A stretch of 64,000 bases of DNA from Treponemataceae bacterium (lineage in GTDB: Bacteria; Spirochaetota; Spirochaetia; Treponematales; Rectinemataceae): NCBI GenBank assembly GCA_963677895.2, contig CAXXGJ010000006.1, positions 192,001 to 256,000 on the forward strand, in the 5' to 3' direction. Positions within the stretch are counted from its first letter, which is position 1. The number at the start of each line of letters is the position of its first letter. This document shows positions 45,606 to 62,511 of this stretch, piece by piece. Made by a program: the position numbers and the translations under genes. The notes beneath the pieces are model-generated. The model saw only the letters and a list, made by a program, of their open reading frames with translations, had not been told where the DNA came from and searched no databases.

Positions 45606-45679
45606 GGGCCCATAGCTCAGTTGGTTAGAGCCGCGGACTCATAATCCGTTGGTCCCTGGTTCAAGTCCAGGTGGGCCCA
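45606..45679 (+). tRNA. tRNA with CAT anticodon, most likely tRNA-Ile2 (lysidine); CCA not encoded
   Basis: Cloverleaf GGGCCCA/TGGGCCC, anticodon loop CTCATAA, T-loop TTCAAGT. C4:G69 and C5:G68 pairs as in Ile2; lacks initiator features. Confidence 0.9.
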
Positions 45680-45792
45680 TACCCTAAGACACTTTAGGGA
45701 AATGAATTACGATCAGCTACCAGAAAACTGGCGCTGAATCCTTATCCAATTGTGAGATGGAATTGTGAGAAATTCCGTCTTGGGAGGGTTCA

Positions 45793-47133
45793 ATGCGTCA
45801 GAAGCTGTTCTCGCTACAACTTCGAAATGGTACTTACTATGCTCAGTTGTTTAACCCCATTACACGGAAGTACTCTTCACCAAGATCAACCAGAACTTCT
45901 GATTATGGCGAAGCTAATGGCATAGCCTTAGATTGGCTTAAGAACGGCCTTCCTAATGCACGAAGAGGGCGCTATTCCGAAACCAGCAACTTTGACAGAA
46001 AACGACGAGAAATAGCCGATCTTCTATCGGTAGATGCTGCTATAGCTACCATTAAATCCGATCACTTCAGTCTTGATGATGGCCAGAGAATAGTTGAGGC
46101 TTTGAAAGAACGCGGTATCATCGAATCTGTGGTCCTTACGAGTTCATCCAGCCAGAAGCTGCTTATCCAGTACCTCAAGGATTTCTGGACTTACGAGACA
46201 TCTCCTTACGTTCATGAGAAGCATCTGTATGGGCAGCGTATTGGGAAGCGGCACGTCCTTGAATCCTTGCATCGCGTTCAATACTGGGAGAAGGCTTTTT
46301 CTTCAACCACTCTACTTAGTGAAGTATCAATTCATGACCTTAGAGACTTTACTCTCAAATTAGCCGAAGAAGGCCGGGCAGCAAATACCATCAATCAGAT
46401 CATGTTTGCCGGAACGACAGCGCTGAAATGGGCTGCTTCCCATGGGCAACTGACTGTTGATCCAACAAAAGGCTTAATGCAGTTCTCTGGACAGGCGATA
46501 AAGCGTGGGATTCTCACTGAAAAGGAAGCATCAAGTCTATTCCGTATAGCCTGGAAAGATGAACGGGCTAGGATAGGTAACCTTGTAGCGATGACGACTG
46601 GTTTGCGATCTGGTGAAGTACTAGCATTACAAATCGAGGATATTGGAGCAGATAGGCTTTTCATTCGTCATTCCTGGAGTGCGGCCGATGAGTTAAAGGG
46701 AACCAAGACAAACCGTGAACGGATAGTCCCCTTATTGCCGCAAGTTCGAACGGAATTGATAGCCTTAGCGAAAAAGAACCCACACCGAGGTCCGGAACAA
46801 AAGTTCATCTTCTATGGGCTGCTTCCTGGAAAGCCGATGGTTCCTAATATTCTCCTTGAGGGTTTATGTAGTGCCCTGATAGATATCGGGATGACGGAAG
46901 AAGCTCGGCAAGAACGTCACATCTGTTTCCACTCATGGCGACATTATTTCACAGCACATATGAATTCCATAGCAGATTCTAAAAAGGTTCAGAAGGCAAC
47001 AGGACATACAACGGATTCGGTGTTCGACGGTTATGCCGATCATGAGATAGCTTCTGATATGAAGGTGCTTTCAAAGACAGCAAAGAGTGTCTTCAAGAAA
47101 GTACTAGACTTTAAAATTGCAGTTGATCAATGA
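45793..47133 (+). CDS. Tyrosine recombinase/integrase
   Basis: TGLRSGE (R), TKT (K), HSWRH, GH, DGYA (Y): full catalytic set. Confidence 0.93.
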   Translation: MRQKLFSLQLRNGTYYAQLFNPITRKYSSPRSTRTSDYGEANGIALDWLKNGLPNARRGRYSETSNFDRKRREIADLLSVDAAIATIKSDHFSLDDGQRIVEALKERGIIESVVLTSSSSQKLLIQYLKDFWTYETSPYVHEKHLYGQRIGKRHVLESLHRVQYWEKAFSSTTLLSEVSIHDLRDFTLKLAEEGRAANTINQIMFAGTTALKWAASHGQLTVDPTKGLMQFSGQAIKRGILTEKEASSLFRIAWKDERARIGNLVAMTTGLRSGEVLALQIEDIGADRLFIRHSWSAADELKGTKTNRERIVPLLPQVRTELIALAKKNPHRGPEQKFIFYGLLPGKPMVPNILLEGLCSALIDIGMTEEARQERHICFHSWRHYFTAHMNSIADSKKVQKATGHTTDSVFDGYADHEIASDMKVLSKTAKSVFKKVLDFKIAVDQ

Positions 47134-47149
47134 CCTTTTGGTCGGCTGA

Positions 47150-47791
47150 TCATGAACCAGGGGAGCTTTGATTAGTAGACTTCCCTAATAATTTGTTTCG
47201 GTGCTTAGAGCGTTCTTGGCGTTTCTTTTCTTCATCACTAGCATTTTTCAGCCTCGATTTTGTAGCGCTATACGACTCAGGTGAAATATCCCGATTATTA
47301 ATGAGGAAACATGAGATGATAGCCGTACGAGCTGGTGGAATTTCTAGCTTCCCTTCTTTTTGTACCTCCTCTAGCCATAGGCATAGCTCTTTTAAAGTAC
47401 CATTGAATTTAAGTTTTCCAATATCGCTGTTTCTTGCAACCTTCTGAAAGACACTGCTCGCATTATTAAATTCAATGCTTACTGCCTCGCGGATTTCTTC
47501 TATAAAACTCGTTTGGGAAACAGCATAGTCCCTTAAGGAAGGCGGTTGATGCAGAGCTTTAGATAGTTTTTGAATAGTATATAAAATAGGTCGGATCTCT
47601 TCAGGTTCCTCCTCTATTATTGGATCAATACTAGGCTCGTTGTGCTGCAGTTCAAAAGGAGAAATTTGCCTCAGTTGGCCTTCAAGATATGCTAATCTTT
47701 CTTTTATTATATCCAAAGCCGTAGTGATCTGTAGTTTTTTGCTAAGAACATCCTTAAGCACAATATCAAGATCCATCATTTTCTTAAACAC
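47150..47791 (-). CDS. Hypothetical protein, C-terminus weakly RteC-like
   Basis: 213-aa ORF in AT-rich DNA; KLKFNGTLKELCLWLEEVQKEGKL. Confidence 0.55.
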   Translation of the reverse strand: MFKKMMDLDIVLKDVLSKKLQITTALDIIKERLAYLEGQLRQISPFELQHNEPSIDPIIEEEPEEIRPILYTIQKLSKALHQPPSLRDYAVSQTSFIEEIREAVSIEFNNASSVFQKVARNSDIGKLKFNGTLKELCLWLEEVQKEGKLEIPPARTAIISCFLINNRDISPESYSATKSRLKNASDEEKKRQERSKHRNKLLGKSTNQSSPGS

Positions 47792-47956
47792 CTCATTAAT
47801 CTCTTATCCCATAAGATATTGTATCTAAATATTAATGTTTATAAAGCCTTTGGCATTAATTGTTAATGTCCAAAGTTAACACGGATTTTACTCTAATGGT
47901 TTTATCAAAGCAATCATTTCAGCATACTTCCACTTGAGAAAAGCAAGGAGGTATCG

Positions 47957-48148
47957 ATGGCTGAGGAGTTGAAGGAAGGATTGTTCTCTGTACGACGAGC
48001 AGCTACCTATCTGGGAATCTCAGCGCAGACGTTATATAGGCGTCATCCCGAGATTCCTAGAATTCGGATAGGATCACTGATTCGTTTCCAGCGTACAGAC
48101 CTGGATCAATACATCGACAAGAATCGTTTTGTAAAAGCGGAACTCTAA
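47957..48148 (+). CDS. Excisionase-like HTH_17 protein
   Basis: AAGGAGG RBS; SVRRAATYLGISAQTLYR...RIGSLIRF. Confidence 0.85.
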   Translation: MAEELKEGLFSVRRAATYLGISAQTLYRRHPEIPRIRIGSLIRFQRTDLDQYIDKNRFVKAEL

Positions 48149-48167
48149 AAGGAAAGGAGCACATCAT

Positions 48168-48368
48168 ATGACAACTGAGGAGAGCTTGATGGCAAATAAG
48201 AATCTCGAGGTAGCCCTTGCGGAGGCACCTCAATATGGCTGGTTGAGCATAACGATCAAGTTTAGGGCAGGGAAAATCTGCCAGATAGAACGGCACAAAT
48301 TAGTTCAGACATTACCAAGTAAGGAAGTTCCTTACGGTATAAAACAGATTTCAAGGAGTATCAAATGA
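48168..48368 (+). CDS. Small DUF2292/YezD-like protein
   Basis: YGWLSITIKFRAGKICQIER pattern; AAGGAG RBS. Confidence 0.55.
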   Translation: MTTEESLMANKNLEVALAEAPQYGWLSITIKFRAGKICQIERHKLVQTLPSKEVPYGIKQISRSIK

Positions 48369-49138
48369 ACAGAGCTAATCTAGTTAATCATGAGTCACTT
48401 AACGAGGATCATGCAAAAAAAAACAGAAGACGTTCTATTGATTTAGAAGCACTGTTATACGGCAATCTTCCATCAAAAAAGATCACCCAAGTTTGGACGG
48501 AGGATGGAAGAATCGATTTTATTACCTTTCATAGGGTTCTATTAAAATCCCTCATTAGCCAAAACAAAAGAGTAATTTTCATAACAGGTGATGCAGATTT
48601 GCCAAAACTTCCCTGTATTATTTCTTCGCAAGGTGAAAAATGTATAAGCCCATTGCTAAAAATTTATAAAGTCAGCTTCTTTGAAGAAATCGAAGAGATT
48701 CTTAAGGAAGAGGAAAAATCTCCAGCTGCAATAATCATTGATGGAATCAGTAAAGTTATGTGTCATAGCCAGAGGGGAAAAGGCCATGATGATGCTGATT
48801 TAGTAGAAATTGATAAGGCAGAACTGAATGCTGAAAAGAAAATCATGAAACTCTTGCAACAAAGAACCAAGGATTTTGATTTTCCGGTTTTATTTACTTC
48901 ATATAGTAACCAGGTCTATAGGTCTGGAGGTTACTCATTAGGGTTTTGCCCTGATAAAGAACCCGTACTTTTTTATGGATCGGATATATCCATTGAACTC
49001 ATTCCAGACTCATTGGTGGATGGTTTTCATTACATACAAGCTTTTGAGTATAGACTTTCCAGGAAAACAAAAAAAGAATTGATATTCGCTTGGCCGATAC
49101 GATCCTATTGGAGCCAAGGGTCACTAATCGACCTATAA
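48365..49138 (+). CDS. RecA-fold protein with degenerate Walker A
   Basis: Colinear with the RecA core (SIDLEALLYGNLP, VIFI, IIIDGI, LF..NQ, FYGS) but no GKT. Confidence 0.6.
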   Translation: MNRANLVNHESLNEDHAKKNRRRSIDLEALLYGNLPSKKITQVWTEDGRIDFITFHRVLLKSLISQNKRVIFITGDADLPKLPCIISSQGEKCISPLLKIYKVSFFEEIEEILKEEEKSPAAIIIDGISKVMCHSQRGKGHDDADLVEIDKAELNAEKKIMKLLQQRTKDFDFPVLFTSYSNQVYRSGGYSLGFCPDKEPVLFYGSDISIELIPDSLVDGFHYIQAFEYRLSRKTKKELIFAWPIRSYWSQGSLIDL

Positions 49139-49280
49139 CAAGCCCTATCCTAAAAGAAAAATGACTATCAACAGAGGAGATAGAGTTGAAGGACCATATA
49201 TGAATTAGCCTTGATAAATATTAAGCCCTATAACGAGCCCCATCTTAATAGAAAACTGATCATAGGTTTAGGAGATAGCA

Positions 49281-50321
49281 GTGATAGACAGTATTGGAAT
49301 TCATACGAAGATAAGTCTCGATGAAGTTGAGTCTTTTATTTATCACCTGCAAGAAGTTAAGAGAAGCCCACGTAAGATAATCGGAAAGATTAATGGTATT
49401 CCGATAAAGGTATTACAAAGTGGAGATATCTACTCAAACTTCAGTCTCCCTAAATACTTCCTAAGATTAACTGGTAAGGTATTAAACGTTACACTGATGC
49501 AAGAGTGTATTGAGAACATCTTGGATGATATACCCGCTTTTCATGATGGAAACCTGTATAGGATAGATATAGCTGATACATTTACGATGTCACAGCCGAT
49601 ACCAAATTATCTGGAGGTTCTTGGGCCAAAAAATAATTGTAGAAGAGTGGAAGATATCTTTGGGTCAAAACCATATAGATATGACTATGATCACCAGACT
49701 AAACACTATAGGTATAAAATACGATCTCTGGTTTTCTATGATAAAAACGCTGAAGAGTTAAGCCAACGTAAGGGGATGAAGCCTGAAAAATTCATTCACA
49801 ATCTATCTACCAACGAACTACGATACGAACTTCAATTCAAGGAAGGTGTCGCAAAACAATTATACAGTGATATAGAATATCAATTTACGCTAATGGATCT
49901 ATTACATCCTAGTCTGTTAAAATTGCTCGCTGATTATTGGAAGAATGAATTTGATGATATCTTGTTAATTCCTCAAAGCTGCTTTTGTCCAGTATTTGAT
50001 ACAACGATAGGTTTTCAAAATGCATTGGCAAGCTATGGCTATCAATGTGCTGGGCCAAATAATGTTGAGGCTTTAATAAAGAAAGCAACGAAAGAACGTA
50101 AGATAAGCAGTCAAAGTGGTTCTCGATTAAGAAGAAAATTACGTAAGAATTATAGGCAGTATTCTAAAGGGATACAATCAGATCCAATTTCTGAGCTGCA
50201 AAACGCTGTGAATACGTCATATAAGAAGTTCCTTACGCACATAGAGTCACTCCAAACCATACAGGCTGTTCAGCAGAATGAACTCAATAACCTAATTGAA
50301 GGAGATAACGATGAAAAATGA
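49281..50321 (+). CDS. Phage/plasmid replication initiator, gene II/X (Rep_trans-like) family
   Basis: MIDSI, SLPKY, YRIDIA, LVFYDK, LRYELQF; AGGAG RBS with GTG start. Confidence 0.75.
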   Translation: MIDSIGIHTKISLDEVESFIYHLQEVKRSPRKIIGKINGIPIKVLQSGDIYSNFSLPKYFLRLTGKVLNVTLMQECIENILDDIPAFHDGNLYRIDIADTFTMSQPIPNYLEVLGPKNNCRRVEDIFGSKPYRYDYDHQTKHYRYKIRSLVFYDKNAEELSQRKGMKPEKFIHNLSTNELRYELQFKEGVAKQLYSDIEYQFTLMDLLHPSLLKLLADYWKNEFDDILLIPQSCFCPVFDTTIGFQNALASYGYQCAGPNNVEALIKKATKERKISSQSGSRLRRKLRKNYRQYSKGIQSDPISELQNAVNTSYKKFLTHIESLQTIQAVQQNELNNLIEGDNDEK

Positions 50322-51330
50322 AGCAGATTCTCTACAAAAACGATGCAAACTTTTTCAGAAAGTAGAAGAAACAGGTAACGTGGCTGAAGCCTGTCGGACT
50401 CTGGGCGTCAATAAATCATCCTACTACAATTTTAAAAGCCTATATGAGAAATATGGAGTTGAGGGGCTTAAGGGGAATAACAAAGAGGACTTGAAACATC
50501 TGTCATCAGAAAAGGCTAGAAAACGAAAGATGGACAAAATAGCTGAGTACGTTATTCAATATCCTGAAGTCGGTTGTCATAGGATTAGAAATTTTCTTCT
50601 TGAAGAGAAAGTTTCAATGTCTGCAAATGCTATTCAAAATGCACTTAAATACAGGGGATTAGGCTCAACTATTGATAGGATTCATGCCCTTGAGGAAAAG
50701 TTATACAAGGAAGATACAAACCCTACTGAGGAGCAGCGTGAACTTATAGAAGGAAAAGACCCATGTATGAAGGAGCGGGGATTAGTGTGTAAAGCCCCAG
50801 GCGAAGTTTTAGTTCAATGTATTTCTAGCTTGCATACACCTTCAACTCAGAAAGTATTATTCGCTCATTATGTAATTGATCGGTATGGATGCCTGGCCTT
50901 CCTAATATTCGACCGTTCGGAGTCAATTGATGTTTCTATCCGGCTGCTAAACGATAGTGTAATTCCTTACTACGATGAAATGGGAATCAAGATTCAAGAG
51001 ATTTTGCTTGAAGCCGAAGAAGAGCCTGATGCAGAAAACTTGTCAAGATATAGTAGTTTCGTGAAGAACTATGGAATAGCGCTTAGGTTCATAGAAAGCA
51101 CAGATGAAAACGCAGATGGGTTTGCCCAGCGTTTTGAGACCTGCTTTTGTGATAAGCTACTATCTGATCCAAAGACAAAGTTGTATCTAGAAGAGATTGA
51201 AGTCTTAAACGAGAAGTGCCAGATCTGGTTGAATCGGTATAATTCTAGTTCATATCATGGCTATAGGAATTTTGGGAACTCTCCATATGATGTAATCAAA
51301 GAATATCGAGCTGGCAGGCAACCAATCTAA
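50311..51330 (+). CDS. IS481-family transposase-derived protein with inactivated DDE triad
   Basis: GNVAEACRTLGV HTH, LLNDSVIPYY, W..RYN, G.SP; triad positions read C/E/Q. Confidence 0.75.
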   Translation: MKNEADSLQKRCKLFQKVEETGNVAEACRTLGVNKSSYYNFKSLYEKYGVEGLKGNNKEDLKHLSSEKARKRKMDKIAEYVIQYPEVGCHRIRNFLLEEKVSMSANAIQNALKYRGLGSTIDRIHALEEKLYKEDTNPTEEQRELIEGKDPCMKERGLVCKAPGEVLVQCISSLHTPSTQKVLFAHYVIDRYGCLAFLIFDRSESIDVSIRLLNDSVIPYYDEMGIKIQEILLEAEEEPDAENLSRYSSFVKNYGIALRFIESTDENADGFAQRFETCFCDKLLSDPKTKLYLEEIEVLNEKCQIWLNRYNSSSYHGYRNFGNSPYDVIKEYRAGRQPI

Positions 51331-51429
51331 ATGGACAGAGTTTTTGGTACTTCCCTATTGGATGAGGAGATTTATGCCACCAGAATACTTAATGGACTCC
51401 AAAAAAGGGGACCGAATAGAAAGGATTAA

Positions 51430-51581
51430 CTCCTTACGGCAAGAAGAAGGGGCCTTACATACGGGATAAAGCGGGCTGGGAAGGGCTCGATCCAAGAGCT
51501 TGAAAAAAGGCTCCTTACGGTTTTCCCGTTACGCTCGAACTGCAGCTTCTATAAAAATGAAAAGCACCTCCTTACGGTTTT
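51430..51581 (+). repeat. Three direct repeats CTCCTTACGG
   Basis: 51430-51439, 51511-51520, 51568-51577; copies 2 and 3 extend to CTCCTTACGGTTTT. Confidence 0.9.
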
Positions 51582-51751
51582 GTGCTTAAGTACAAAAGTG
51601 TACTTCCATATGACTTGAACCAGATCTAAAAGACAGTAAGAATTCCTCTTATGGCATGGCTCTGAAAGGCTTCTTCTTGCCTGGTTTTTGCTTGTTTCCA
51701 CCCTTCAACCGAAGTAGAATGACAAAAAGATGAAAAAAGGGAGAAGTTGAC

Positions 51752-54661
51752 GTGCCAGATGAGCTCAATCCATCCCAATGTCGTGCTGTTGAATCGACCG
51801 AAACTCCCCTCTTGGTTATCGCTGGGCCAGGTGCAGGAAAAACCAAGACTTTAGTTGAGCGAATAGTAGCCTTGGTCACAAAGAAGCAGGTGCCATCTGA
51901 GAGCATCTTTGTTGCGACGTTTACCGAGAAAGCAGCCAAAGAACTTGTAACTAGGGTTTCGAACAGGGCGATAGAGCTCGGTGTGGATATCAACCTCAGC
52001 GAAATGTATATTGGGACCCTTCATTCCATTTTCCTTAGAATTATCGAAGAATACCGGCCCTATACCTTGTTGATGAGGAACTATCGTGTTCTTGATGACT
52101 TCGAACAGCAATACCTTATCCACCGTTCCTTAGCAGCCTTTCAAGCAGTGAGCGATTATAACACCCTCATAAAGCCCATGCTAAACCGCTGGGAACAAGC
52201 AAAAGAGGTAGCGGGGCTCGTCAATAAAGCTGCGGAAGAAGATCTTGAACTTGACCGGCTTTCAGCATCTCCTTCTGCCGAACTGAAAGCGCTGGGGGCG
52301 ATCACCCAAGTATATCGTTCCAAGCTGCAGGAAGAAAACGCCTTAGATTTTTCGACAATCCAATCGACGATGCTCAAACTCATCACTGAACAGCCAAAGG
52401 TTCTTTGCGACCTTCAAACGAAGATTAGATACTTCATGATAGACGAATACCAGGATACGAATACGATCCAGGAAAAGATTCTCCTTATGCTAGCCGCTCC
52501 TGATAACCGCATCTGCGTTGTTGGTGACGACGACCAGAGCCTGTATCGGTTTCGCGGGGCGACCGTAAGGAATATCCTGGAATTCAGAAAGAATTTCGCC
52601 TCAGGAGAATGCGAGAAAGTTGAGCTTGTCACCAACTACCGATCACACCCCAAGATCATTGATTTCTACAACGAATGGATGGGATCTATTCCGTCGAAGG
52701 GTTCATGGACGGGAGAAACTGGAGAGAGTTTTCGCTATCCCAAATTGATACGACCGCGAGACACGACGTTCTCGGACTATGAATCTGTCGTAAAAGTTGC
52801 GGGGCTGGAGAGCCAAGAATCTTGGAATGAAGAGGTCCTTACGTTCTTGCGATCCTTGAGAGACAAGGGGATTCTTAAGGATAACAACCAAGTTGCATTT
52901 CTATTCCGATCAGTCAAGAACAGCAAGGCGATTGCGCTAGCGACTTTTCTTGAAGAAAATGGCGTCCCAGTCTTCTCTCCAAGATCCGCACTCTTTTTCC
53001 AGCGAGAAGAGATTCGACTGCTCATCGGAGCATATGTCTTTCTCTTTCCTCAGCTCATTGAAAAACACCTGAAATGGCAAGCTGACGCCGAACTTAAGGA
53101 ATGGGATTACTATCGAGAATGCCTTGAGCTCTTCACGAATGAATTGCGAGCGAATCCTGATCTGCATAAGGAGCTCAGGATTTGGTGTGCCAAGAAGGCG
53201 AAAGTCCATAGCTCCTTGAGCGAGAATACAAACTACTCTTTCGCCTCGCTCTTCTATGAACTCCTGGCCTTTCCCATGTTCTCACGTTATGTGGATACAG
53301 AACTGACCGGTGGGGTGTCGGACCTCCGTCCTGTCTATAATCTCTCGCTTTTCAGTCAACTCCTGGCCAAATTCGAGTTTCTTCACAATATAATCGTCCT
53401 TACACCCGAAAGCTTAACAAAAGATCTCCGCTCTCTTTTCAACCAATACCTCCGCTATCTCATTGATGGTGGTATCGCTGAGTATGAGGATTTCGATAGC
53501 TTCGCGCCTTCTGGATGTGTATCGTTCATGACCATTCATCAATCCAAAGGCTTGGAATTCCCGATCGTTTTAGTCGATTCGCTCAATAGTGTTCCAGTTA
53601 CTTCCATCGAAGCTATCGATACAGCGCTGGCGAATTTCTATCGGGAAGATGAGCCTTTTGAACCCCCGGAACGAATCAAATATTTCGACTTCTGGAGACT
53701 CTATTACACTGCGTTTTCCAGAGCACAGAATCTCCTTGTCCTTACTGGCGCTGAAAACCATTCAGGAAAGGGTATGTCTCGACTTCCATCACTCTACTTC
53801 GCACCACTTTATAACAAGCTTCCTGACTGGAGGGATGCGCGGCTCGACGAAAGTCATCTTCTCTTGGACACAGTAAAGCCAGCGAATATCAAACACGAAT
53901 ACTCATTTACATCTCATGTCTTGCTTTACGAGGATTGCCCTCTCCAATACAAGTTCTTCCGTGAACTGGAGTTCAGCCCTGTCCGGACAAACGCTATTCT
54001 ATTTGGTACTCTTGTGCATCAGACGATTGAAGATGCGCATAAGGCTGTTTTGGCTGGCAAGTCAGACATGATCACCGCAGACCAGATTCACTTTTGGCTC
54101 GAAGCGAACTACAAGAGCCTCTCCAAGTCGACAAGAACATACCTGGCGCAAGGGACTTTAGGAGCTGTTGAGGATCATGTTCTTCGCTACGTGGATCAGG
54201 CTAGCCGGGACTGGAGCGCAATCCAGGAAGCTGAACTCAGGGTTGCGCTGCTGAAAGAGAACTATATCCTTACGGGTTCAATAGACCTCATTCGCGGCAA
54301 AGAACAAAGCGTCGAGATCATCGACTTTAAAACTGAAAAGAAACCTGATATCAACAGCCCGGAAGGCCGTGAAAAACTCGACAGATATAGGCGTCAGCTT
54401 GAAATATACGCCCACATAGTTGAAGAACGATATGGTCATGAAGTGAGTCGGATGCATCTTTACTATACGGGGGCAAAAAACGAGAGTCCTTACATAAGCT
54501 ATGACTATGAACCGAGGAAGATCGACAGCACAATTACTGCCATTGGCGGTGTGGTAGGGAAGATTGAAGCGAAAAACTTCGATCATCACCATGTTGAAAA
54601 GTCAGAGCGACATTGCAGCAATTGTGACGTCAAACCCTTCTGCTGGAGGAATTTTATCTAA
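51752..54661 (+). CDS. UvrD/PcrA-like SF1 helicase fused to an AddB/Cas4-like PD-(D/E)XK nuclease
   Basis: AGPGAGKT, DEYQDT, GDDDQSLY.FRGA, TIHQSKGLEF; C-terminal EDCP, IDL..IIDFKT, QLEIY, CSNC...C. Confidence 0.9.
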   Translation: MPDELNPSQCRAVESTETPLLVIAGPGAGKTKTLVERIVALVTKKQVPSESIFVATFTEKAAKELVTRVSNRAIELGVDINLSEMYIGTLHSIFLRIIEEYRPYTLLMRNYRVLDDFEQQYLIHRSLAAFQAVSDYNTLIKPMLNRWEQAKEVAGLVNKAAEEDLELDRLSASPSAELKALGAITQVYRSKLQEENALDFSTIQSTMLKLITEQPKVLCDLQTKIRYFMIDEYQDTNTIQEKILLMLAAPDNRICVVGDDDQSLYRFRGATVRNILEFRKNFASGECEKVELVTNYRSHPKIIDFYNEWMGSIPSKGSWTGETGESFRYPKLIRPRDTTFSDYESVVKVAGLESQESWNEEVLTFLRSLRDKGILKDNNQVAFLFRSVKNSKAIALATFLEENGVPVFSPRSALFFQREEIRLLIGAYVFLFPQLIEKHLKWQADAELKEWDYYRECLELFTNELRANPDLHKELRIWCAKKAKVHSSLSENTNYSFASLFYELLAFPMFSRYVDTELTGGVSDLRPVYNLSLFSQLLAKFEFLHNIIVLTPESLTKDLRSLFNQYLRYLIDGGIAEYEDFDSFAPSGCVSFMTIHQSKGLEFPIVLVDSLNSVPVTSIEAIDTALANFYREDEPFEPPERIKYFDFWRLYYTAFSRAQNLLVLTGAENHSGKGMSRLPSLYFAPLYNKLPDWRDARLDESHLLLDTVKPANIKHEYSFTSHVLLYEDCPLQYKFFRELEFSPVRTNAILFGTLVHQTIEDAHKAVLAGKSDMITADQIHFWLEANYKSLSKSTRTYLAQGTLGAVEDHVLRYVDQASRDWSAIQEAELRVALLKENYILTGSIDLIRGKEQSVEIIDFKTEKKPDINSPEGREKLDRYRRQLEIYAHIVEERYGHEVSRMHLYYTGAKNESPYISYDYEPRKIDSTITAIGGVVGKIEAKNFDHHHVEKSERHCSNCDVKPFCWRNFI

Positions 54662-54723
54662 AATATATTGCTATTTTGTAAAAAATGTGCAAATATTGAG
54701 TATATTTCCTCTTGGAGGCTAAT

Positions 54724-56013
54724 ATGCTGCTAGAGTTTCGTGTTTCCAACTATCGATCTATCAGGGATGAGCAATGCCTCAGTCTCATGCCAGTTGCAGC
54801 TGATACAGCTCTCAAAGCAAGCAATGTTTATAAAACCAATAGTAGCTTAGTACCTGAAGTGTTGAATGGCTGTGCTGTTTATGGAGCCAATGCCAGCGGG
54901 AAATCCAACCTATTCCGAGCTATGGGATTCATGCAAGCGCTTGTTAAAGAGTCCGCGACGGCGGTGAAAGCCGGGCAAGCGCTCAATGTGCAGAGCTTCG
55001 CCTTTGACAAAACACATCCTTCTTCAGCTTCATCCTTTGAACTGACCGCTTTGATTGAGGGAGTACGCTATCAATATGGGTTCTCCCTGACAGCGAATCG
55101 AATACAAGACGAATGGCTATTGGTTTTTAAGTCCAGTAAGCCTCAGGAGTGGTTCTCCAGGAAATGGAACGAGAATACAAAGCAGCATGATTATGCTCCT
55201 TTCAGCGCCTATTTTTTGGGACAAAAGGATCTTTGGAAGCGTTCGACCAGAGAAAATGCCCTCTTCCTCTCCACTGCGGTACAGTTTAATAGTGAGCAGC
55301 TGAGACCTCTTTGGAATTGGATCGTCAATAGCTGGATCAATCTTCCTGCAATGGTACCTCTAAATATGAATATTACTCTTAACGCCATTGAACATGTGCA
55401 AGCTAAGAAGACCATTCTTGAGTTTCTGAACGCTGCTGATCTTGGGATTGCGGATATTTCAATTGTTAAGGCTCCTGGCAAGGAGGCGCTGTTTGCGATC
55501 GATGGGGCTACTGGAAATGCCTCGGTTTCTGAGAGCAAGGATACTGAAATACGAATGCCGCGATTCACCCATGTTGCCTCGCAGCAGACAGTAGCGCTGG
55601 ACTATCAAGATGAGTCTCAAGGAACTCAGCGCCTTTTTGAGTATGCTGGAATAATCCTCATGATCTTGCAGAATGGGATGACACTCGCAATTGACGAGAT
55701 TGAAAGTAGTATGCATCCCCTCCTGGTGCGGCATATTCTAAAGCTTTTCTTCTCTCCTGAGACGAATCCTCATGGTGCCCAGATCATATTCACGACACAC
55801 AGCACAACGCTCTTGGATAATGAGCTTCTCAGGCGGGACCAAATCTGGTTCACCGAGAAAGATGCAGACCTCGCTACCGCTTTGATTGCCTTCAGCGAGT
55901 TTAGTCCTCGCAAAAACGAGTCCTTTGAGAAGAACTATCTTGATGGACGATATGGCGCTATTCCTATACTCCGTACATTCCAGGCAAAGGAAGCGACGAA
56001 TGCACGAAAATAG
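54724..56013 (+). CDS. AAA_21 ABC-type ATPase (RloA/AbiLi-like)
   Basis: NYRSI, YGANASGKSN, ESQGTQR, IDEIESSMHP, FTTH, RRDQIWF, YLDGRYGAIP. Confidence 0.88.
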   Translation: MLLEFRVSNYRSIRDEQCLSLMPVAADTALKASNVYKTNSSLVPEVLNGCAVYGANASGKSNLFRAMGFMQALVKESATAVKAGQALNVQSFAFDKTHPSSASSFELTALIEGVRYQYGFSLTANRIQDEWLLVFKSSKPQEWFSRKWNENTKQHDYAPFSAYFLGQKDLWKRSTRENALFLSTAVQFNSEQLRPLWNWIVNSWINLPAMVPLNMNITLNAIEHVQAKKTILEFLNAADLGIADISIVKAPGKEALFAIDGATGNASVSESKDTEIRMPRFTHVASQQTVALDYQDESQGTQRLFEYAGIILMILQNGMTLAIDEIESSMHPLLVRHILKLFFSPETNPHGAQIIFTTHSTTLLDNELLRRDQIWFTEKDADLATALIAFSEFSPRKNESFEKNYLDGRYGAIPILRTFQAKEATNARK

Positions 56014-56692
56014 CCCCAAAAAACGTCAAATCAGACGTCTAGAACGTAAAGCCGGAAAGAGGCCGCTATATCCTCGTATACTGATGGTCTGTGAAGGAAG
56101 TAAAACGGAAAAACTCTACTTCGATGATATTCGACAGCATTGGAGAATATCTTCGGCTGATTGGGAGGTGTTGCCTTCTGAACTTGGAACGGGACCTGAA
56201 AAGGTTGTAGAGTTTGCGGAGCAGAAGGCTCGTGAGGAGAAGAAATGGGACGAAGTCTATTGCATTTTTGATCGCGATGACCATGTTTATTACCAAACGG
56301 CAATACAAAAAGCGAAAAGCCTCGACGGCAAAATACGGCCCAATGATCCAATTGCAGCCAGTTCTCGATTTATGGCGATACCCTCCATACCTTGTTTTGA
56401 GTTGTGGTATCTCATTCACTTCGTATCGATCACCCAAGAGCTTCCCAGGGATAAAGTGTACACGCAACTAAAGATTAAAGTTCCTGAATATAGTAAAGGT
56501 GCTGCAGGCATGTTCGAAAGAACATTTTCGAGACTCTCCTTCGCGTGTACAAGTGCCGAAAATGAGAGGAAGCGAAAAGAACAGTCTGGTAATGATAACC
56601 CTTCAACTGACGTAGACATTCTTGTTAAGCGTCTACAGGAAATCGGGGCGATGAAAACAAAAGCGATGACAAAACAGCGGGGCGAAGAATGA
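56000..56692 (+). CDS. RloB-family protein (AbiLii-like)
   Basis: VCEGSKTEKLYF, CIFDRD, SIPCFELWYLIHF, NPST; overlaps the ATPase stop. Confidence 0.88.
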   Translation: MHENSPKKRQIRRLERKAGKRPLYPRILMVCEGSKTEKLYFDDIRQHWRISSADWEVLPSELGTGPEKVVEFAEQKAREEKKWDEVYCIFDRDDHVYYQTAIQKAKSLDGKIRPNDPIAASSRFMAIPSIPCFELWYLIHFVSITQELPRDKVYTQLKIKVPEYSKGAAGMFERTFSRLSFACTSAENERKRKEQSGNDNPSTDVDILVKRLQEIGAMKTKAMTKQRGEE

Positions 56693-58638
56693 ACGAAGAA
56701 TCGAGAGAGGCGCGGCTTCCTTACGGTACAACCGAGAGCACGCCACAATACACATTCGACTATGAACCGATACGCGGGTACCCAGAGCTTCGTTGGACAG
56801 GGAAACGACCGTTTCGCGGTACTACATATTTCCCCGCGCAATTGAAAGAAAACCATGGCGACTCCGTCGATGGTTGGCGAAACAAGCTCTATTGGGGCGA
56901 TAATCTCCAGGTGATGAGTCATCTCCTTCGGGAATATCGTGGGAAAGTAAAGCTTATCTACATCGATCCTCCATTTGATTCCAAAGCTGACTACAAGAAG
57001 AAGATTGAACTTCGGGGCGCTAACGCCACAAGCGATGCGAGCGCTTTTGAAGAAAAGCAGTACACAGATATTTGGACGAATGATGAGTATCTGCAATTCA
57101 TGTATGAACGACTAATCCTAATGAGGGAATTGCTTGCGGAAGATGGGAGCATATTTCTTCACTGTGATGATACAAAAAATGCTTACCTTAAGTTACTTCT
57201 TGTCGAAGTGTTTTCTGAATCGAATTTTCGAAATGAAATAGTTTGGAAAAGATCAACAGCAACTGGGTTGGCAATGAAACGATGTGGGACGCTTCATGAT
57301 ACTATTTATTGGTTTTCAAAGAGTAATAACTATCAGTTTACAATGCAGTATCATAAATATGAAGAAGAATACCTAAAGCGAATTAGGAAAGACGAATCCG
57401 GACGAGACTATATCCCTATTCCAACAGGGAATCCAGGTCCAAGACCAAATCTTTATTATGAGTATAAAGGCTATCTACCCCACCCTAATGGATATAAATG
57501 GACTAGGGGAAAAATGGAAGAATTGGATCGCCAGGGGAGGCTTATATTTCCTGAGTCAAAAGAGGGACGGATACAGTATAAACAGTATCTAGATGAAATG
57601 GAGGGTGTAAAGCTACAAGACCTATGGATAGATATTCCGCCTGTAAATCCTGTTGCTAAGGAAAGACTTGGTTATCCAACACAAAAACCTGAAGCATTGA
57701 TTGAGAGAATTGTAAAAATGACGACGAAGCCTGGGGACCTTGTTTTTGATTGCTTCATGGGGTCCGGAACGGCTCAAGCAGTTTCAATGAAGCTCGGCCG
57801 TCGCTTTCTTGGTGCAGATATTAATTTAGGTGCCATACAGACAACTACTAAACGGCTACTTGGAATAGCAGATGAGCTAAAAAGCGGGATACCAGAGCTT
57901 GCTCTTGGTGATCTTGTTGAACCTGCAAAGATAATCACAGGATTTGAAGTCTTTACTGTCAATCATTACGACTTCTTTCGCAACGAACTCGAAGCTAAGG
58001 AATTGCTTATAGAAGCTCTCGAGTTACAGAAACTCCCTGGCAACATGCTTTGGGATGGAGAGAAGGAAGGATGGATGGTGAAGATCCTCGCTGTTAATCG
58101 CTTGGCTACAGCCGCCGATCTGAATCCCATCCTCGGAAACTTGGATTATAAAGCTTGGGAACGACGTTCACGAGAACATCCTGATAAACCAGTGGAACGA
58201 ATCAGGTTTGTCTGCATGGGACACGATCCGGATTTAAAGGCACAATTCTTAGATGAAATGGCTAAGATTGGTTTTAAAGTTGAGCTCGAGGTTCTCGATA
58301 TTTTGCGTGATAGGAAAGAACTTCAATTCAAGCGGGAAGCCGAAGCTAAGATTGTCCTTACGAAGAAAAAGCTTGAGATTCAGAGCTTCTACCCAATGAA
58401 CCTTTTACAGAAGCTTTCGTTCGACCGGGCGAAAGTTGGAGAGTGGCGCGAACTTGTCGATTCCGTCTTGATCGACTGGAACTATGATGGAGCAGTCTTT
58501 AGCCCCTCACTCTCGGATATTCCAGATAAGAATACCTTAGTAAGGGGTGCCTATGATGTCCCCGACGACGCTGGGACAATTAGGGTTAAAATAACCGACC
58601 TGATTGCCGAATCGTGGGAAGAGAACGTAGGAGCGTAG
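56689..58638 (+). CDS. mod: Type III R-M methyltransferase (Mod), beta-class amino-MTase
   Basis: WGDNL, IYIDPPF, YPTQKPE, DCFMGSGT. Confidence 0.9.
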   Translation: MNEESREARLPYGTTESTPQYTFDYEPIRGYPELRWTGKRPFRGTTYFPAQLKENHGDSVDGWRNKLYWGDNLQVMSHLLREYRGKVKLIYIDPPFDSKADYKKKIELRGANATSDASAFEEKQYTDIWTNDEYLQFMYERLILMRELLAEDGSIFLHCDDTKNAYLKLLLVEVFSESNFRNEIVWKRSTATGLAMKRCGTLHDTIYWFSKSNNYQFTMQYHKYEEEYLKRIRKDESGRDYIPIPTGNPGPRPNLYYEYKGYLPHPNGYKWTRGKMEELDRQGRLIFPESKEGRIQYKQYLDEMEGVKLQDLWIDIPPVNPVAKERLGYPTQKPEALIERIVKMTTKPGDLVFDCFMGSGTAQAVSMKLGRRFLGADINLGAIQTTTKRLLGIADELKSGIPELALGDLVEPAKIITGFEVFTVNHYDFFRNELEAKELLIEALELQKLPGNMLWDGEKEGWMVKILAVNRLATAADLNPILGNLDYKAWERRSREHPDKPVERIRFVCMGHDPDLKAQFLDEMAKIGFKVELEVLDILRDRKELQFKREAEAKIVLTKKKLEIQSFYPMNLLQKLSFDRAKVGEWRELVDSVLIDWNYDGAVFSPSLSDIPDKNTLVRGAYDVPDDAGTIRVKITDLIAESWEENVGA

Positions 58639-58639
58639 A

Positions 58640-61240
58640 ATGGCAAAGAAAATTGCTCTACCAGCAATAGTTACCCTCCCTTTCTTTGAGTATCTATGGA
58701 GCTTCTATCGCGCCAATCGCGGACAGATTCGATTCTCTTATAAAGATCTCACAAAAAGGCTCTTGGATTTCAATGACCCCTCCAATGCCGGAGCTTTCCT
58801 CCGAAAGCCGCAGTTCGAAGCGTTTGAGATGTATGTATTCCTAAAGGAGTACCTTGATAACCCCAAACTTGCCGAATTGCTCGATGACTGGCGTAATAAC
58901 AAAGGCAAGTTTCAGCTGAAGAATACTCCTGCGGCAGATCAGCAAGATCTCTTCGGTACTTTAGATGCAAACGTCTATGATGAAGCATTCAAAAAACTTG
59001 AGGCTGTTCGCCAGGATTATGCAAACTACATCTTTGCCTTAACGATGGGGGTAGGGAAAACCATCCTCATGGCATTGTGCATCTTCTATGAATTTCTGCT
59101 CGCTCGAAAATTCCCTTCAGATACACGTTTTTGCCATAATGCAATTGTCTTCGCTCCGGATACAACCGTGCTTCAGTCTCTCAAGGAGATACAAGAGTTC
59201 GATAAAACTAAGGTGATTCCCGCTGAATACGCTCGCGGCCTCAATGCTGAGATAAAATTCTATTTCCTCGAAGAATCTGGTGTAACGCTCAATACACTTG
59301 ATCGATCAAGCTTTAACGTTGTTATTTCCAACACACAAAAAATCATACGCAAACGCCAAAACGCGCAGAAATCAGCGTGCGACAAGCTCTTTGCTCAAGG
59401 CGACTGGGACGATGTACTAGCAGTAGACACCAATGCAGATCTGTACGATATTGGCGATGAAGAAGGGCTTTCGACCAATCAGCGTTTCCAGAAGCTTTCG
59501 CGGCTTCATCAGCTTGGTATCTATGTCGACGAAGCTCATCATGCATTTGGAAAGACTCTCAAGAAAGACATGGCAGATCATGAGTCTAAAACCAGTCTGC
59601 GCTTGACGATTGATAGCCTTGCCCGCGAACTCTTGCAAGCAGGCACTCGTGTCGTTGCCTGCTATAACTTCACCGGTACTCCTTACGTTGAGAATGAATT
59701 GATGCCGGAAGTGGTTTATGCCTTCTCATTGAAAGATGCGATTTCAGGCAGGTATCTCAAGACTGCTAAAGTCACACAGGTTCAAAATGCGCTCTCGCTA
59801 GAGTTTATTCGGAATGCTATAAAAAGCTTTGTGGCGGAACATGGCGATGCGCGATATGAAGGCATGCTCCCCAAGATGGCTATCTTCGCCGCGACCATCA
59901 ACGAACTTGAGCAAGAGCTTAAGCCTCAGGTCGAAAAAGTATTAATAGAATTGGGGCTACCCACATCAAGCATTCTCGTCAACGTTGGTGATGAAAAGCT
60001 CACAAGCCAAGACGATATCCGGGATTTTCGTTCACTCGACACTCGTGATTCCATTAAACAGTTCATTCTTTTGGTTGGGAAGGGGAAAGAAGGATGGAAC
60101 TGCCGATCCCTTTTTTCTGTAGCTCTCTTCAGACAACCGAAATCGAAGATCTTTGTCTTGCAGGCGACCATGCGCTGTCTTCGGTCGATAACTAGCGTTC
60201 AACAAGAAGGCCATGTTTTTCTCTCGAACGAGAACTACGAGATCCTAAAAGCTGAACTTGAAGCCAACTTCAGGCTCTCCGTCGATGAATTCCAGAGCAA
60301 ACCCGATGATGGGAAGAAGACAGTGATTCTCAAAGTTCACAAACCTCCGGTCTTTATCGATGTTGTAGAGTCTAAGACCCTCTATAACGTAGCAGAAAAG
60401 CATCCGCAGCCTGGGTATTCGCTAGGCCTTGATGAACTCGATACAACACAATATCGAATCACTTCGACCACTACGGATATCCGTAGCATCGAATCGGTTG
60501 AGGGAGGAACGCGCGATCTCTCGTCCTTACGCGACGATATTGAGTTTTCTGAGATAATGTTGGTTGCCGAAGTTTCCCGATATCTGAATAAGAGTCCTAT
60601 AGAAGTAGAAGAGCTCCTTTGCCAATCTGCCGAAAGAATGGAAGGCATCCTTGTTTGGGTGAATCGAGCAAACAGAATTCTCTATGACATTGTTATTCCA
60701 CGCCTTTTTAAGCACCTCTATGAAATAGAAGAGTATCAAGGCCCCAAGCATAAAGTACGAAAGTTGCTCGTAAAAGATCCGCCAAATGGTGAAGAGGGAT
60801 ATACGATGCGAGTAGATCCCGCTCTCTTCATAGAAGAATCAACGCTAGAGTATTCTACATACAAAGATAAAAGCTTCCATCTCTCTGGGTATGGCTTTGA
60901 TTCAACTCCCGAACTAGAGTTCTTCCGCCAAAACTTGCCGAACCTTCATATAAAGAAACTTTGGTTCACGGGGATGCTCACCGCAGGCCAGACAGAATTC
61001 AACGTCCATTATATCGACCCGAACTCAAACGCGCTTAGAACGTACTATCCGGACTTTCTGCTCGAGTTGGATGATGGAACGTATCTCATCGTTGAAATTA
61101 AAGGCGATCATATGATTGATGACCCGGTGACACAGGCCAAGAAAAGCTACGCGGAGCGTATGGCTGAGGCTAGTCGAATGCGATATAGACTGATTCCTGG
61201 TAGTCAGGCGGGGCATAAGATGGATATTTTTCTTGGATAA
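58640..61240 (+). CDS. res: Type III R-M restriction subunit (Res)
   Basis: MGVGKT, DEAHH, FTGTP, EGW, Q..MRCLR; C-terminal YYPDF...EIKG nuclease. Confidence 0.88.
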   Translation: MAKKIALPAIVTLPFFEYLWSFYRANRGQIRFSYKDLTKRLLDFNDPSNAGAFLRKPQFEAFEMYVFLKEYLDNPKLAELLDDWRNNKGKFQLKNTPAADQQDLFGTLDANVYDEAFKKLEAVRQDYANYIFALTMGVGKTILMALCIFYEFLLARKFPSDTRFCHNAIVFAPDTTVLQSLKEIQEFDKTKVIPAEYARGLNAEIKFYFLEESGVTLNTLDRSSFNVVISNTQKIIRKRQNAQKSACDKLFAQGDWDDVLAVDTNADLYDIGDEEGLSTNQRFQKLSRLHQLGIYVDEAHHAFGKTLKKDMADHESKTSLRLTIDSLARELLQAGTRVVACYNFTGTPYVENELMPEVVYAFSLKDAISGRYLKTAKVTQVQNALSLEFIRNAIKSFVAEHGDARYEGMLPKMAIFAATINELEQELKPQVEKVLIELGLPTSSILVNVGDEKLTSQDDIRDFRSLDTRDSIKQFILLVGKGKEGWNCRSLFSVALFRQPKSKIFVLQATMRCLRSITSVQQEGHVFLSNENYEILKAELEANFRLSVDEFQSKPDDGKKTVILKVHKPPVFIDVVESKTLYNVAEKHPQPGYSLGLDELDTTQYRITSTTTDIRSIESVEGGTRDLSSLRDDIEFSEIMLVAEVSRYLNKSPIEVEELLCQSAERMEGILVWVNRANRILYDIVIPRLFKHLYEIEEYQGPKHKVRKLLVKDPPNGEEGYTMRVDPALFIEESTLEYSTYKDKSFHLSGYGFDSTPELEFFRQNLPNLHIKKLWFTGMLTAGQTEFNVHYIDPNSNALRTYYPDFLLELDDGTYLIVEIKGDHMIDDPVTQAKKSYAERMAEASRMRYRLIPGSQAGHKMDIFLG

Positions 61241-61293
61241 GCGAATAAACTCGATTTTGTAAAAATGATTAAAAGCCAATGCTAGGAGGGAAT

Positions 61294-62511
61294 ATGAAGA
61301 GCGAAAACTCACAACGTATACTCGGTTATCTTCAACAATGCTTATCAAGTGATAAAAGACCTCTTAGCTTGTTTTTAGGCGCAGGGTGCCCGTTAGCAGT
61401 TAAAACAGGGCAAGACAAATCGGTTCCACTAATACCAGATATATCAGGAATAACACAGATAGTACGTAATGAATTATCAGAATGTTCAGAGTGTGGCCCT
61501 CTCTTGAAGGTAATAGAAGAGCACTTTATGACAGATGGGGTGGAAACAACATCTATTGAAGATATGCTTACACACATTCGTTCACTTAGGGCGGTCGCAG
61601 GTAATGCTGAAGTCCGTGGCCTTTCTGCAACAAATCTTGACAAATTGGATAACCGTATATGTCAAATAATATATAGAATTGTTGATAAAGAACTTCCAGG
61701 CATCGATACACCATACCATTATGTTGCTTCATGGGTTGATTCAGTAAGAAGAGAAAACCCAATCGAGGTGTTCACGACAAATTATGATTTACTAATGGAA
61801 CAAGCCTTTGAAGACAATAAGGTACCTTATTATGATGGATTTACCGGTGTACGCAAACCTTTTTTTGATCTTCGCGCAATGGAAGAAGACATGTTGCCAC
61901 CGCGATGGGCTCGACTGTGGAAAATACATGGGTCGATAAATTGGTATCAGGTAGATAATAAAGGAGTGTTTCGAGGAACTGCGGAAGAGAAACAGGGCTC
62001 TAAGCGTGTTATCCACCCATCGCACTTAAAATATCAAGAAAGCAGAAGATTGCCCTATTTAGCTATGATGGATCGCTTAAGAGCATTTTTTAAACATCCA
62101 ACTGCAACTTTACTTACATGTGGTTACTCATATCGGGATGAACACATTAATGAAATCATTATTCAGGGGCTTGAATACACGCAAACCGCTGTTGTCTTTG
62201 CTCTGCTATATGGAGACCTTGAGGTATATTCAAATGCGATTACTCTTGCTTTACGGAATTCAAATCTAAATTTATTGGCTAGTAATGGAGCGGTTATCGG
62301 AGGACAAAAAGTGGTCTGGCAAGAGCGAGAAGCTGAACAAGAAACGGAAGAATCAGTTGATTGGCTAGCCTGGAAAGCGGTTCCGTCTAGTCCTCAACCT
62401 GACAAGCAAAAGGCTGAGCTTTTACTTGGTGATTTTGCTATCTTTGGAAAATTTTTACATGAGCTTACTGGCACTCAAAAGCGCTTTATGGAGCAAGGGA
62501 ATGTCAACTAA
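61294..62511 (+). CDS. SIR2-like NADase (SIR2_2), Sir2-HerA defence system
   Basis: FLGAGC, FTTNYDLL.E, KIHGS..W, GYSYRDEHIN; AGGAGG RBS. Confidence 0.9.
   Translation: MKSENSQRILGYLQQCLSSDKRPLSLFLGAGCPLAVKTGQDKSVPLIPDISGITQIVRNELSECSECGPLLKVIEEHFMTDGVETTSIEDMLTHIRSLRAVAGNAEVRGLSATNLDKLDNRICQIIYRIVDKELPGIDTPYHYVASWVDSVRRENPIEVFTTNYDLLMEQAFEDNKVPYYDGFTGVRKPFFDLRAMEEDMLPPRWARLWKIHGSINWYQVDNKGVFRGTAEEKQGSKRVIHPSHLKYQESRRLPYLAMMDRLRAFFKHPTATLLTCGYSYRDEHINEIIIQGLEYTQTAVVFALLYGDLEVYSNAITLALRNSNLNLLASNGAVIGGQKVVWQEREAEQETEESVDWLAWKAVPSSPQPDKQKAELLLGDFAIFGKFLHELTGTQKRFMEQGNVN

Follow-up and report, generated by a model that had tools for sequence, protein, structure and literature searches.

Is the open reading frame at positions 50311–51330 of this stretch an insertion sequence in decay, or a transposase gene kept for another task, and if so, for which? 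In the window (the whole 64,000-nt stretch of DNA analysed here), the first-pass annotation had read the frame as a full-length IS481-type transposase with all three DDE residues replaced, repurposed as a DNA-binding protein, with repeats 100 bp downstream as its candidate sites. The product is referred to here as P0001, and its landmarks are as follows.

50311–51330, + strand: P0001, catalytically dead IS481-derived protein of 339 aa, with two HTH domains, an RNase H-like core carrying C170/E234/Q273 and an acidic core face
50818–50820, + strand: Cys170, replacing the first catalytic Asp (alignment with P0008)
51010–51012, + strand: Glu234, replacing the second catalytic Asp (alignment with P0008)
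51127–51129, + strand: Gln273, replacing the catalytic Glu (alignment with P0008)

The frame is single and free of stops over its 339 residues, of which residues 10–318 match the IS481 model NF033577 (E of 5e-20, 72 bits, below the NCBIfam cut-off of 224). P0008, which is an intact IS481 transposase encoded by a member of this bacterial family (253 bits with the same model), aligns with P0001 from end to end (30% identity, 332 columns, E of 3e-46), and in an alignment of 143 proteins its residues D168, D232 and E271 correspond to C170, E234 and Q273. At position 234 the change is conservative, Asp to Glu, so one carboxylate of the triad is kept. The N-terminal HTH is recognized by Pfam HTH_23, HTH_28 and HTH_Tnp_1, all above cut-off. 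An AlphaFold model of P0001 (9 sequences, mean pLDDT 79) resembles the IS21 transposase IstA (Z-score of 15.9 and r.m.s.d. of 8.9, 222 aligned) and a retroviral integrase core (Z-score of 15.6 and r.m.s.d. of 2.7, 157 aligned); a PDB sequence search with the profile of the P0001 clade gave no match. The first-pass description of a full-length protein with a retained N-terminal HTH, no stops or frameshifts and all three DDE residues replaced is borne out in each part, and the checks that it called for give homology in profile and fold and, in the sequence alignment, no intact triad.

With the IS481 transposases (NF033577; subgroup of P0008, P0016 and P0021), whose family features are given in PMC10045372, P0001 thus has in common its length, its two N-terminal HTHs and the RNase H-like integrase core, being homologous in sequence and fold while scoring under the NCBIfam cut-off; it differs in the C/E/Q triad, the acidic core face, its single copy and the lack of inverted repeats and target duplication. 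One copy of the gene is present in the 3.5-Mb assembly (tblastn). Around it no inverted-repeat pair exceeded the score threshold in a search that gave clear ends at four of four active IS481 control loci, in agreement with the first-pass remark that terminal inverted repeats were not obvious. The best score near the gene with a profile of 26 IS481 ends was 8.0 (training range 8.0–31.5), which is not convincing, and TGT..ACA end pairs with a 4, 5, 6 or 15-bp duplication around it numbered zero. Copies in varied contexts, as for an IS481, were not found: the gene lies behind rep in all three alleles for which context is available. No active IS481 was found in the host genome. P0001 descends from IS481, yet is not a member of it by triad, ends, duplication or copy pattern.

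Closest to P0001 are six proteins of 339–340 aa (P0002–P0007; 54–64% identity) and an orthologue in genome G065 (81% identity), with identities spanning 53–81%; this clade has a support of 100 and a stem of 0.93 changes per column. Across it the C/E/Q triad is invariant (8/8 members), as are 24 of the 51 positions of HTH1 (7 members), whose net charge is small (−4 to +2 across members, versus +3 for P0008). The net charge of core residues 225–275 lies between −4 and −11 in the 8 members, whereas 112 non-DDE relatives outside the clade average +2 (minimum −4). In a single pairwise comparison, with the G065 orthologue, dN/dS is 0.37 (Fisher p = 2e-6; p = 0.012 for the core alone) and 0.49 for the 60 codons of HTH1, while the neighbouring genes are lower (int 0.08, rep 0.15, uvrD 0.08); the dN/dS check suggested in the first pass, here on one pair, therefore speaks against neutral evolution. 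P0001 and P0002 are 88% identical in HTH1 and 48–61% identical in the remainder, and the alleles look mosaic, which suggests recombination between elements.

These data bear on two readings of the protein. A slowly decaying IS remnant without function might be expected to show a dN/dS above that of neighbouring core genes, as is seen, and many relatives do sit on long branches; against this, the ratio is well under 1, and all seven full-length clade members are stop-free at 339–340 aa down to 53% identity. The remnant reading is largely refuted, and we give it very little credence. Alternatively, the invariant C170, E234 and Q273, the second of them still acidic, might form a site with changed chemistry, such as metal binding or strand cleavage. 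In this close set, however, 51 of 130 core positions (39%) are invariant anyway, two of the three carboxylates are gone and the formerly basic loop before the third residue is now acidic; DDE chemistry requires three carboxylates, according to PMC10045372, and such an activity is highly improbable.

Loss of the triad extends beyond this clade. Among 134 library relatives (the representatives of 280–420 aa out of 149 new proteins, 15 being excluded on length), DDE is lost in 115 and kept in 19, with all three residues changed in 15, counts that are biased by the query profile and may include misaligned rows. Conservation of the two HTHs is 0.52 and 0.46 in the 112 non-DDE relatives versus 0.46 and 0.46 in 20 DDE proteins, values possibly inflated by a search profile that favours the HTH, and that of the core is 0.38 versus 0.56. 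The IS481 subgroup of P0001 seems to have been co-opted often. Six of 12 long relatives scanned (P0082, P0092, P0137, P0146, P0147 and P0153) are IS481-like modules fused to LacI, GspC/PDZ or GH26 domains; a weak search for longer fused forms scored none. At 30 loci examined from 401 genomes of the phylum, there were, besides P0001, active IS481 copies, fragments and one DDG copy.

An intact frame, purifying selection, fixed synteny and the absence of ends together make it very probable that P0001 has been domesticated, a status that is well supported but not unique. The first-pass view of a kept, repurposed protein rather than a decaying IS is thereby sustained by the single copy, the missing ends, the fixed place behind rep, the dN/dS and the invariant replaced triad; of its phrase ‘repurposed DNA-binding protein’, the repurposing stands, and DNA binding is predicted from the retained HTH domains. 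CENP-B is a domesticated transposase. RAG1 is another, as described in PMC10045372. P0001 resembles both as a transposase kept for a new job, and differs in that it stands alone, is kept by another mobile element rather than by the host chromosome and is coupled to a rolling-circle-type Rep. No description of dead IS481 derivatives in integrative elements was found in the literature searched, which excluded most subscription papers.

The mobile element in question is 31.4 kb long, of low GC content, and bounded by a tRNA with a CAT anticodon and a 46-bp repeat. Its features in the window are listed below, with the presence of the octamer TCCTTACG, described further on, indicated for the defence genes.

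45606–45679, + strand: tRNA (CAT anticodon), the integration site; the 46-bp att repeat recurs at G000:C6:269077-269122
45793–47133, + strand: tyrosine integrase (domain match)
47957–48148, + strand: excisionase-like HTH_17 protein (family seen on the G065 orthologue)
48365–49138, + strand: RecA/RadB-fold protein without a recognizable Walker A motif (ESM Atlas feature matches of 0.91–0.94 to Rad51/RecA clusters)
49132–49301, + strand: a pair of imperfect direct repeats of 75 nt ahead of rep, almost the same in G065; a candidate origin or operator
49281–50321, + strand: Rep of the G2P/Phage_CRI type, a rolling-circle initiator family (Pfam PF05144, 25.2 bits, cut-off 21.7)
51752–54661, + strand: UvrD helicase with a C-terminal PD-(D/E)XK nuclease (domain match)
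54712–56692, + strand: AbiL-like pair (AAA_21 and RloB), no octamer
56689–61240, + strand: Type III-like methylase and restriction subunit, four octamers
61279–64000, + strand: SIR2-HerA defence pair, extending beyond the window, no octamer

The order is integrase, excisionase-like gene, RecA/RadB-fold gene (a call that rests on the ESM Atlas, the single-sequence model being too poor at pLDDT 41), G2P-type Rep, P0001, UvrD-nuclease, defence cargo and a second XerC-like recombinase. The cargo (window 51752–64000 and locus L002) comprises the UvrD-nuclease, AbiL, Type III-like restriction-modification, SIR2-HerA, a RES operon and a cytosine methylase with a HATPase partner. An integrase, att repeats, an excisionase and a Rep/relaxase-like gene, features of integrative mobilizable elements, are all present. 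Judged by PMC5704250, which describes such elements with a Rep of the RCR-initiator type, the likeness covers the tyrosine integrase, the att repeat at the 3′ end of a tRNA, the excisionase-like gene, the RCR-type Rep and the defence cargo; the present element differs in its G2P-type Rep, the dead transposase, the RecA-fold gene without Walker A and the polarized octamer, and its mobilization is putative. A near-identical element or remnant occupies the same tRNA in two genera, and related copies are present in contigs of four runs. One remnant at this tRNA (G049:C5:27243-30425) has its integrase broken by another transposase gene and keeps two octamers. Elsewhere, an intact IS481 lies 450 bp behind a helicase-like gene of another integrase element (L009:7078-12729, in G040:C308), an arrangement from which capture could follow.

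Within the element, P0001 is tightly linked to rep. Its ATG at 50311 overlaps the rep stop codon (50319–50321) by 11 nt and is preceded at 6 nt by GGAG, so that the overlap and the separate ribosome-binding site noted in the first pass are both confirmed. G065 has the identical order int–xis–RecA-like–rep–P0001–uvrD. The cluster of P0002, a 64%-identical allele, contains a Rep fragment, whose longest contig has the same length, and a Rep–P0002 fusion, so P0002 too lies behind a near-identical Rep (P0163, P0166); in the database protein P0163, the C-terminal half of Rep is fused in-frame to the P0002 allele, on one contig and possibly through an assembly slip. Context is thus available for three alleles (P0001, the G065 orthologue and P0002), P0003–P0007 being without it. 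Among 69 genomes of the family, Rep matches occur in the host (G000) and G065 only, the two with the C/E/Q gene, and the remaining matches to the clade profile are ordinary or broken IS481. Profile scans of metagenome and viral contigs yielded no context for further P0001 alleles, a scan of viral contigs for Rep returned none and a word-indexed search found no further 90% cluster of Rep. P0001 is best read as belonging to the backbone of these spirochaete integrative elements, which form a small family.

The repeats downstream of the gene belong to a more extensive pattern.

45680–64000, + strand: polarized octamer TCCTTACG at 46133, 46203, 48329, 50230, 51431, 51512, 51569, 52836, 54267, 56718, 58355, 59680 and 60524 (counts)
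52564, − strand: one further copy of TCCTTACG, with seven more on the + strand past the window end (counts)
51431–51576, + strand: cluster of three TCCTTACG, all kept in G065, where the intergenic region is 81% identical

The three CTCCTTACGG copies at 51430, 51511 and 51568, the repeats reported 100 bp downstream of the gene, are real, and represent three of the 21 element copies of TCCTTACG. Against 0.85 expected, these 21 copies lie on the + strand in all but one case (20/21, binomial p = 2e-5), and no one-letter variant exceeds 5 per strand. In the host the octamer is not enriched (63 seen, 67 expected) and its orientation is not linked to skew (30 versus 26). The 22 genes of the element hold 15 copies, compared with 0.6 under codon shuffling, which ranks TCCTTACG first of 65,536 8-mers; of the placements that the protein sequences permit, 15/34 are filled on the + strand and 1/21 on the − strand (one 66-aa ORF excluded). 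Coding copies are mostly at synonymous positions, and the density is about one per 1.5 kb. Sites occur in int, rep, uvrD, mod, res, rmuC and the XerC-like gene, and are absent from AbiL, SIR2-HerA, the RES operon and the last methylase cassette; octamer-bearing genes may be the older residents and octamer-free ones the newer cargo. In G065 all nine shared + sites are kept and the − site is absent; two further + sites occur there at synonymous positions.

Across 151 genomes of the order, no genome-wide enrichment approaches the element density (maximum 149 copies per genome), and in genomes with lopsided counts (G001, G060, G058 and G075) no cluster was seen. Two host contigs have outlier 8-mers of their own: G000:C15 contains a 13-kb sequence twice and is probably a doubled circular contig, and G000:C39 (33% GC) has several one-sided 8-mers, 34–44 times each, probably in a repeat array. 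The literature searched, most subscription papers being outside its reach, held no description of TCCTTACG.

Fourteen of 15 control loci with related integrases have 0–1 copies of TCCTTACG; the fifteenth, a G009 element at the same tRNA, has ten on the + strand and none on the − strand, five of them in genes not shared with the P0001 element and one antisense in a minus-strand integrase. No IS481-like match was found in the G009 genome (94% complete) at E up to 1, although a P0001-like gene could have been lost there. L217, a metagenome contig found via the XerC-like gene and carrying a partial element, has ten + copies and one − copy; three of these lie antisense within genes of the minus strand, and in 16.4 of its 19 kb a gene like P0001 is absent. 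TCCTTACG is the top 8-mer in both elements as well. Since some sites are antisense to the minus-strand genes that contain them, the polarity belongs to the DNA rather than to the mRNA; because the G009 and L217 elements carry the polarized octamer without a P0001-like gene, P0001 is not needed for it in cis. The proposal that the downstream repeats are candidate sites of P0001 is therefore not supported, the motif being element-wide and equally enriched and polarized where such a gene was not found; as far as the sequences indicate, P0001 is probably not the reader of TCCTTACG.

The P0001, G009 and L217 elements all share XerC-like, ankyrin and 250-aa genes. The XerC-like recombinase (L002:4069-5028, G000:C6:258069-259025) has three octamers and TCCTTACA within about 320 bp; its copies in G009 and in metagenome elements are 88% identical. 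The other three loci from the XerC-like gene scan comprise one with 3 sites and two with none. As the sole cause of the octamer, this gene was rejected: 20 loci of distant homologues have 0–2 sites, and in L219, a copy with 80% identity, none of the three sites is intact. A helper phage bearing the octamer was also sought and, among the matches listed, not found: at least 120 viral loci have the two-copy pattern, and the eight richest are tandem or clustered repeats or have four sites. No FtsK-family protein was found among the scanned element proteins, the only relative being the defence HerA. In G009 a RecA-like gene (L054:1225-2391) follows the excisionase and has Val for the Walker A Lys. 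The P0001 element has a RecA-fold gene of its own, lacking a recognizable Walker A, directly behind its excisionase-like gene, and the two have no detectable similarity. In L217 (10826–13643) a TIR-domain gene is followed by a 512-aa gene without a Pfam match, which we take to resemble a short Argonaute.

TraB recognition sequences are clustered, whereas TCCTTACG is spread through genes. Like Chi, KOPS/AIMS and TraB sites, it is an exact 8-mer, strongly over-represented, in one orientation and inside genes (KOPS/AIMS following PMC5993296). The polar octamers KOPS/AIMS are words of the host chromosome, and DNA inserted there comes to obey them, in the account of PMC5993296; TCCTTACG by comparison marks the element only. 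Host-chromosome enrichment and polarity are absent for it, and an exact, oriented and dispersed 8-mer under selection is found within the elements.

Could P0001 nevertheless read TCCTTACG, coating or looping the whole element through dispersed oriented boxes that evolved from an IS481 end sequence? The only intergenic three-site cluster lies 100 bp behind its gene and is kept in G065, the variant TCCTTACA is one-sided in the island too (five + and no − copies), and positions 19–26 of 28 IS481 ends read A[CT]CT[GT]ACA, a box that places the octamer among the top 1.6% of 8-mers. That box was chosen after the motif had been seen; once every register of the IS481 end is admitted, the octamer drops to the top 20.5%. 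The closest active relatives have ends that match the box more poorly, and the octamer occurs in five unshared places in G009, which has no IS481-like gene, and likewise in 16.4 kb of L217. We consider this unlikely. CENP-B provides the comparison for a transposase-derived protein that coats DNA through dispersed boxes. The fullest version is similarly unlikely: the element family would mark its own DNA from end to end, in one direction, with a private octamer in synonymous codons, and a dead IS481 transposase whose end-recognition box had drifted to that word would bind all copies and organize replication, segregation or transfer, serving in trans elements that lack it.

Other proposals place the action of P0001 on proteins. 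Its acidic dead core might bind the basic C-terminal part of Rep and modulate nicking or copy number, as the rep/P0001 gene overlap, the one in-frame Rep–P0002 fusion and the unusual charge of residues 225–275 would suggest; the fusion, however, is on a single contig and could be an assembly slip, and alleles with P0001 cores about 40% apart have almost the same Rep, which leaves a direct partnership distinctly unlikely. A trans-dominant inhibitor of active IS481 transposases, acting by end occupancy or mixed oligomers to shield the element or the host, would fit the fully kept scaffold, the active IS481 of the same subgroup in related genomes and the nature of the element as a defence island, but the host genome is without active IS481, the HTH1 recognition stretch is unlike that of active relatives and the tight coupling to rep would go unexplained; this we hold to be improbable.

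In the reading that we favour, with a probability of about one half, P0001 regulates the rep module by binding DNA, probably as an oligomer, and the octamer is a separate directional signal. P0001 would be a domesticated, non-catalytic IS481 transposase within the element backbone, made together with Rep by coupled translation, as the 11-nt overlap suggests. Its two HTH domains would bind the element’s own DNA, with the paired repeats upstream of rep as the first candidate site, its dead RNase H-like core may serve in oligomerization, and the protein would serve the rep module as its repressor or in copy control. Against this reading stand the small net positive charge of HTH1, a dN/dS that indicates weaker constraint than on int, rep and uvrD, and the failure to find a helper that carries the octamer. 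TCCTTACG would be a feature of a wider set of elements, a directional DNA signal like Chi, KOPS or TraB sites that has been selected into synonymous positions and may orient a motor or nuclease that travels on element DNA in transfer or replication. Its reader would be a factor other than P0001, such as a helper’s transfer motor in trans or the product of a shared-module gene.

In this family of elements, the transposase of one mobile element would have been recruited to the replication module of another, and a large group of IS481 derivatives that lack the triad is still annotated as transposases. The octamer is the more surprising result. A polarized word private to the element fills nearly half of the places that the proteins permit, and some process along the element DNA must select for TCCTTACG. 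Its reader, once found, would expose an undescribed mechanism of transfer, protection or partition, for which the word is a direct probe.
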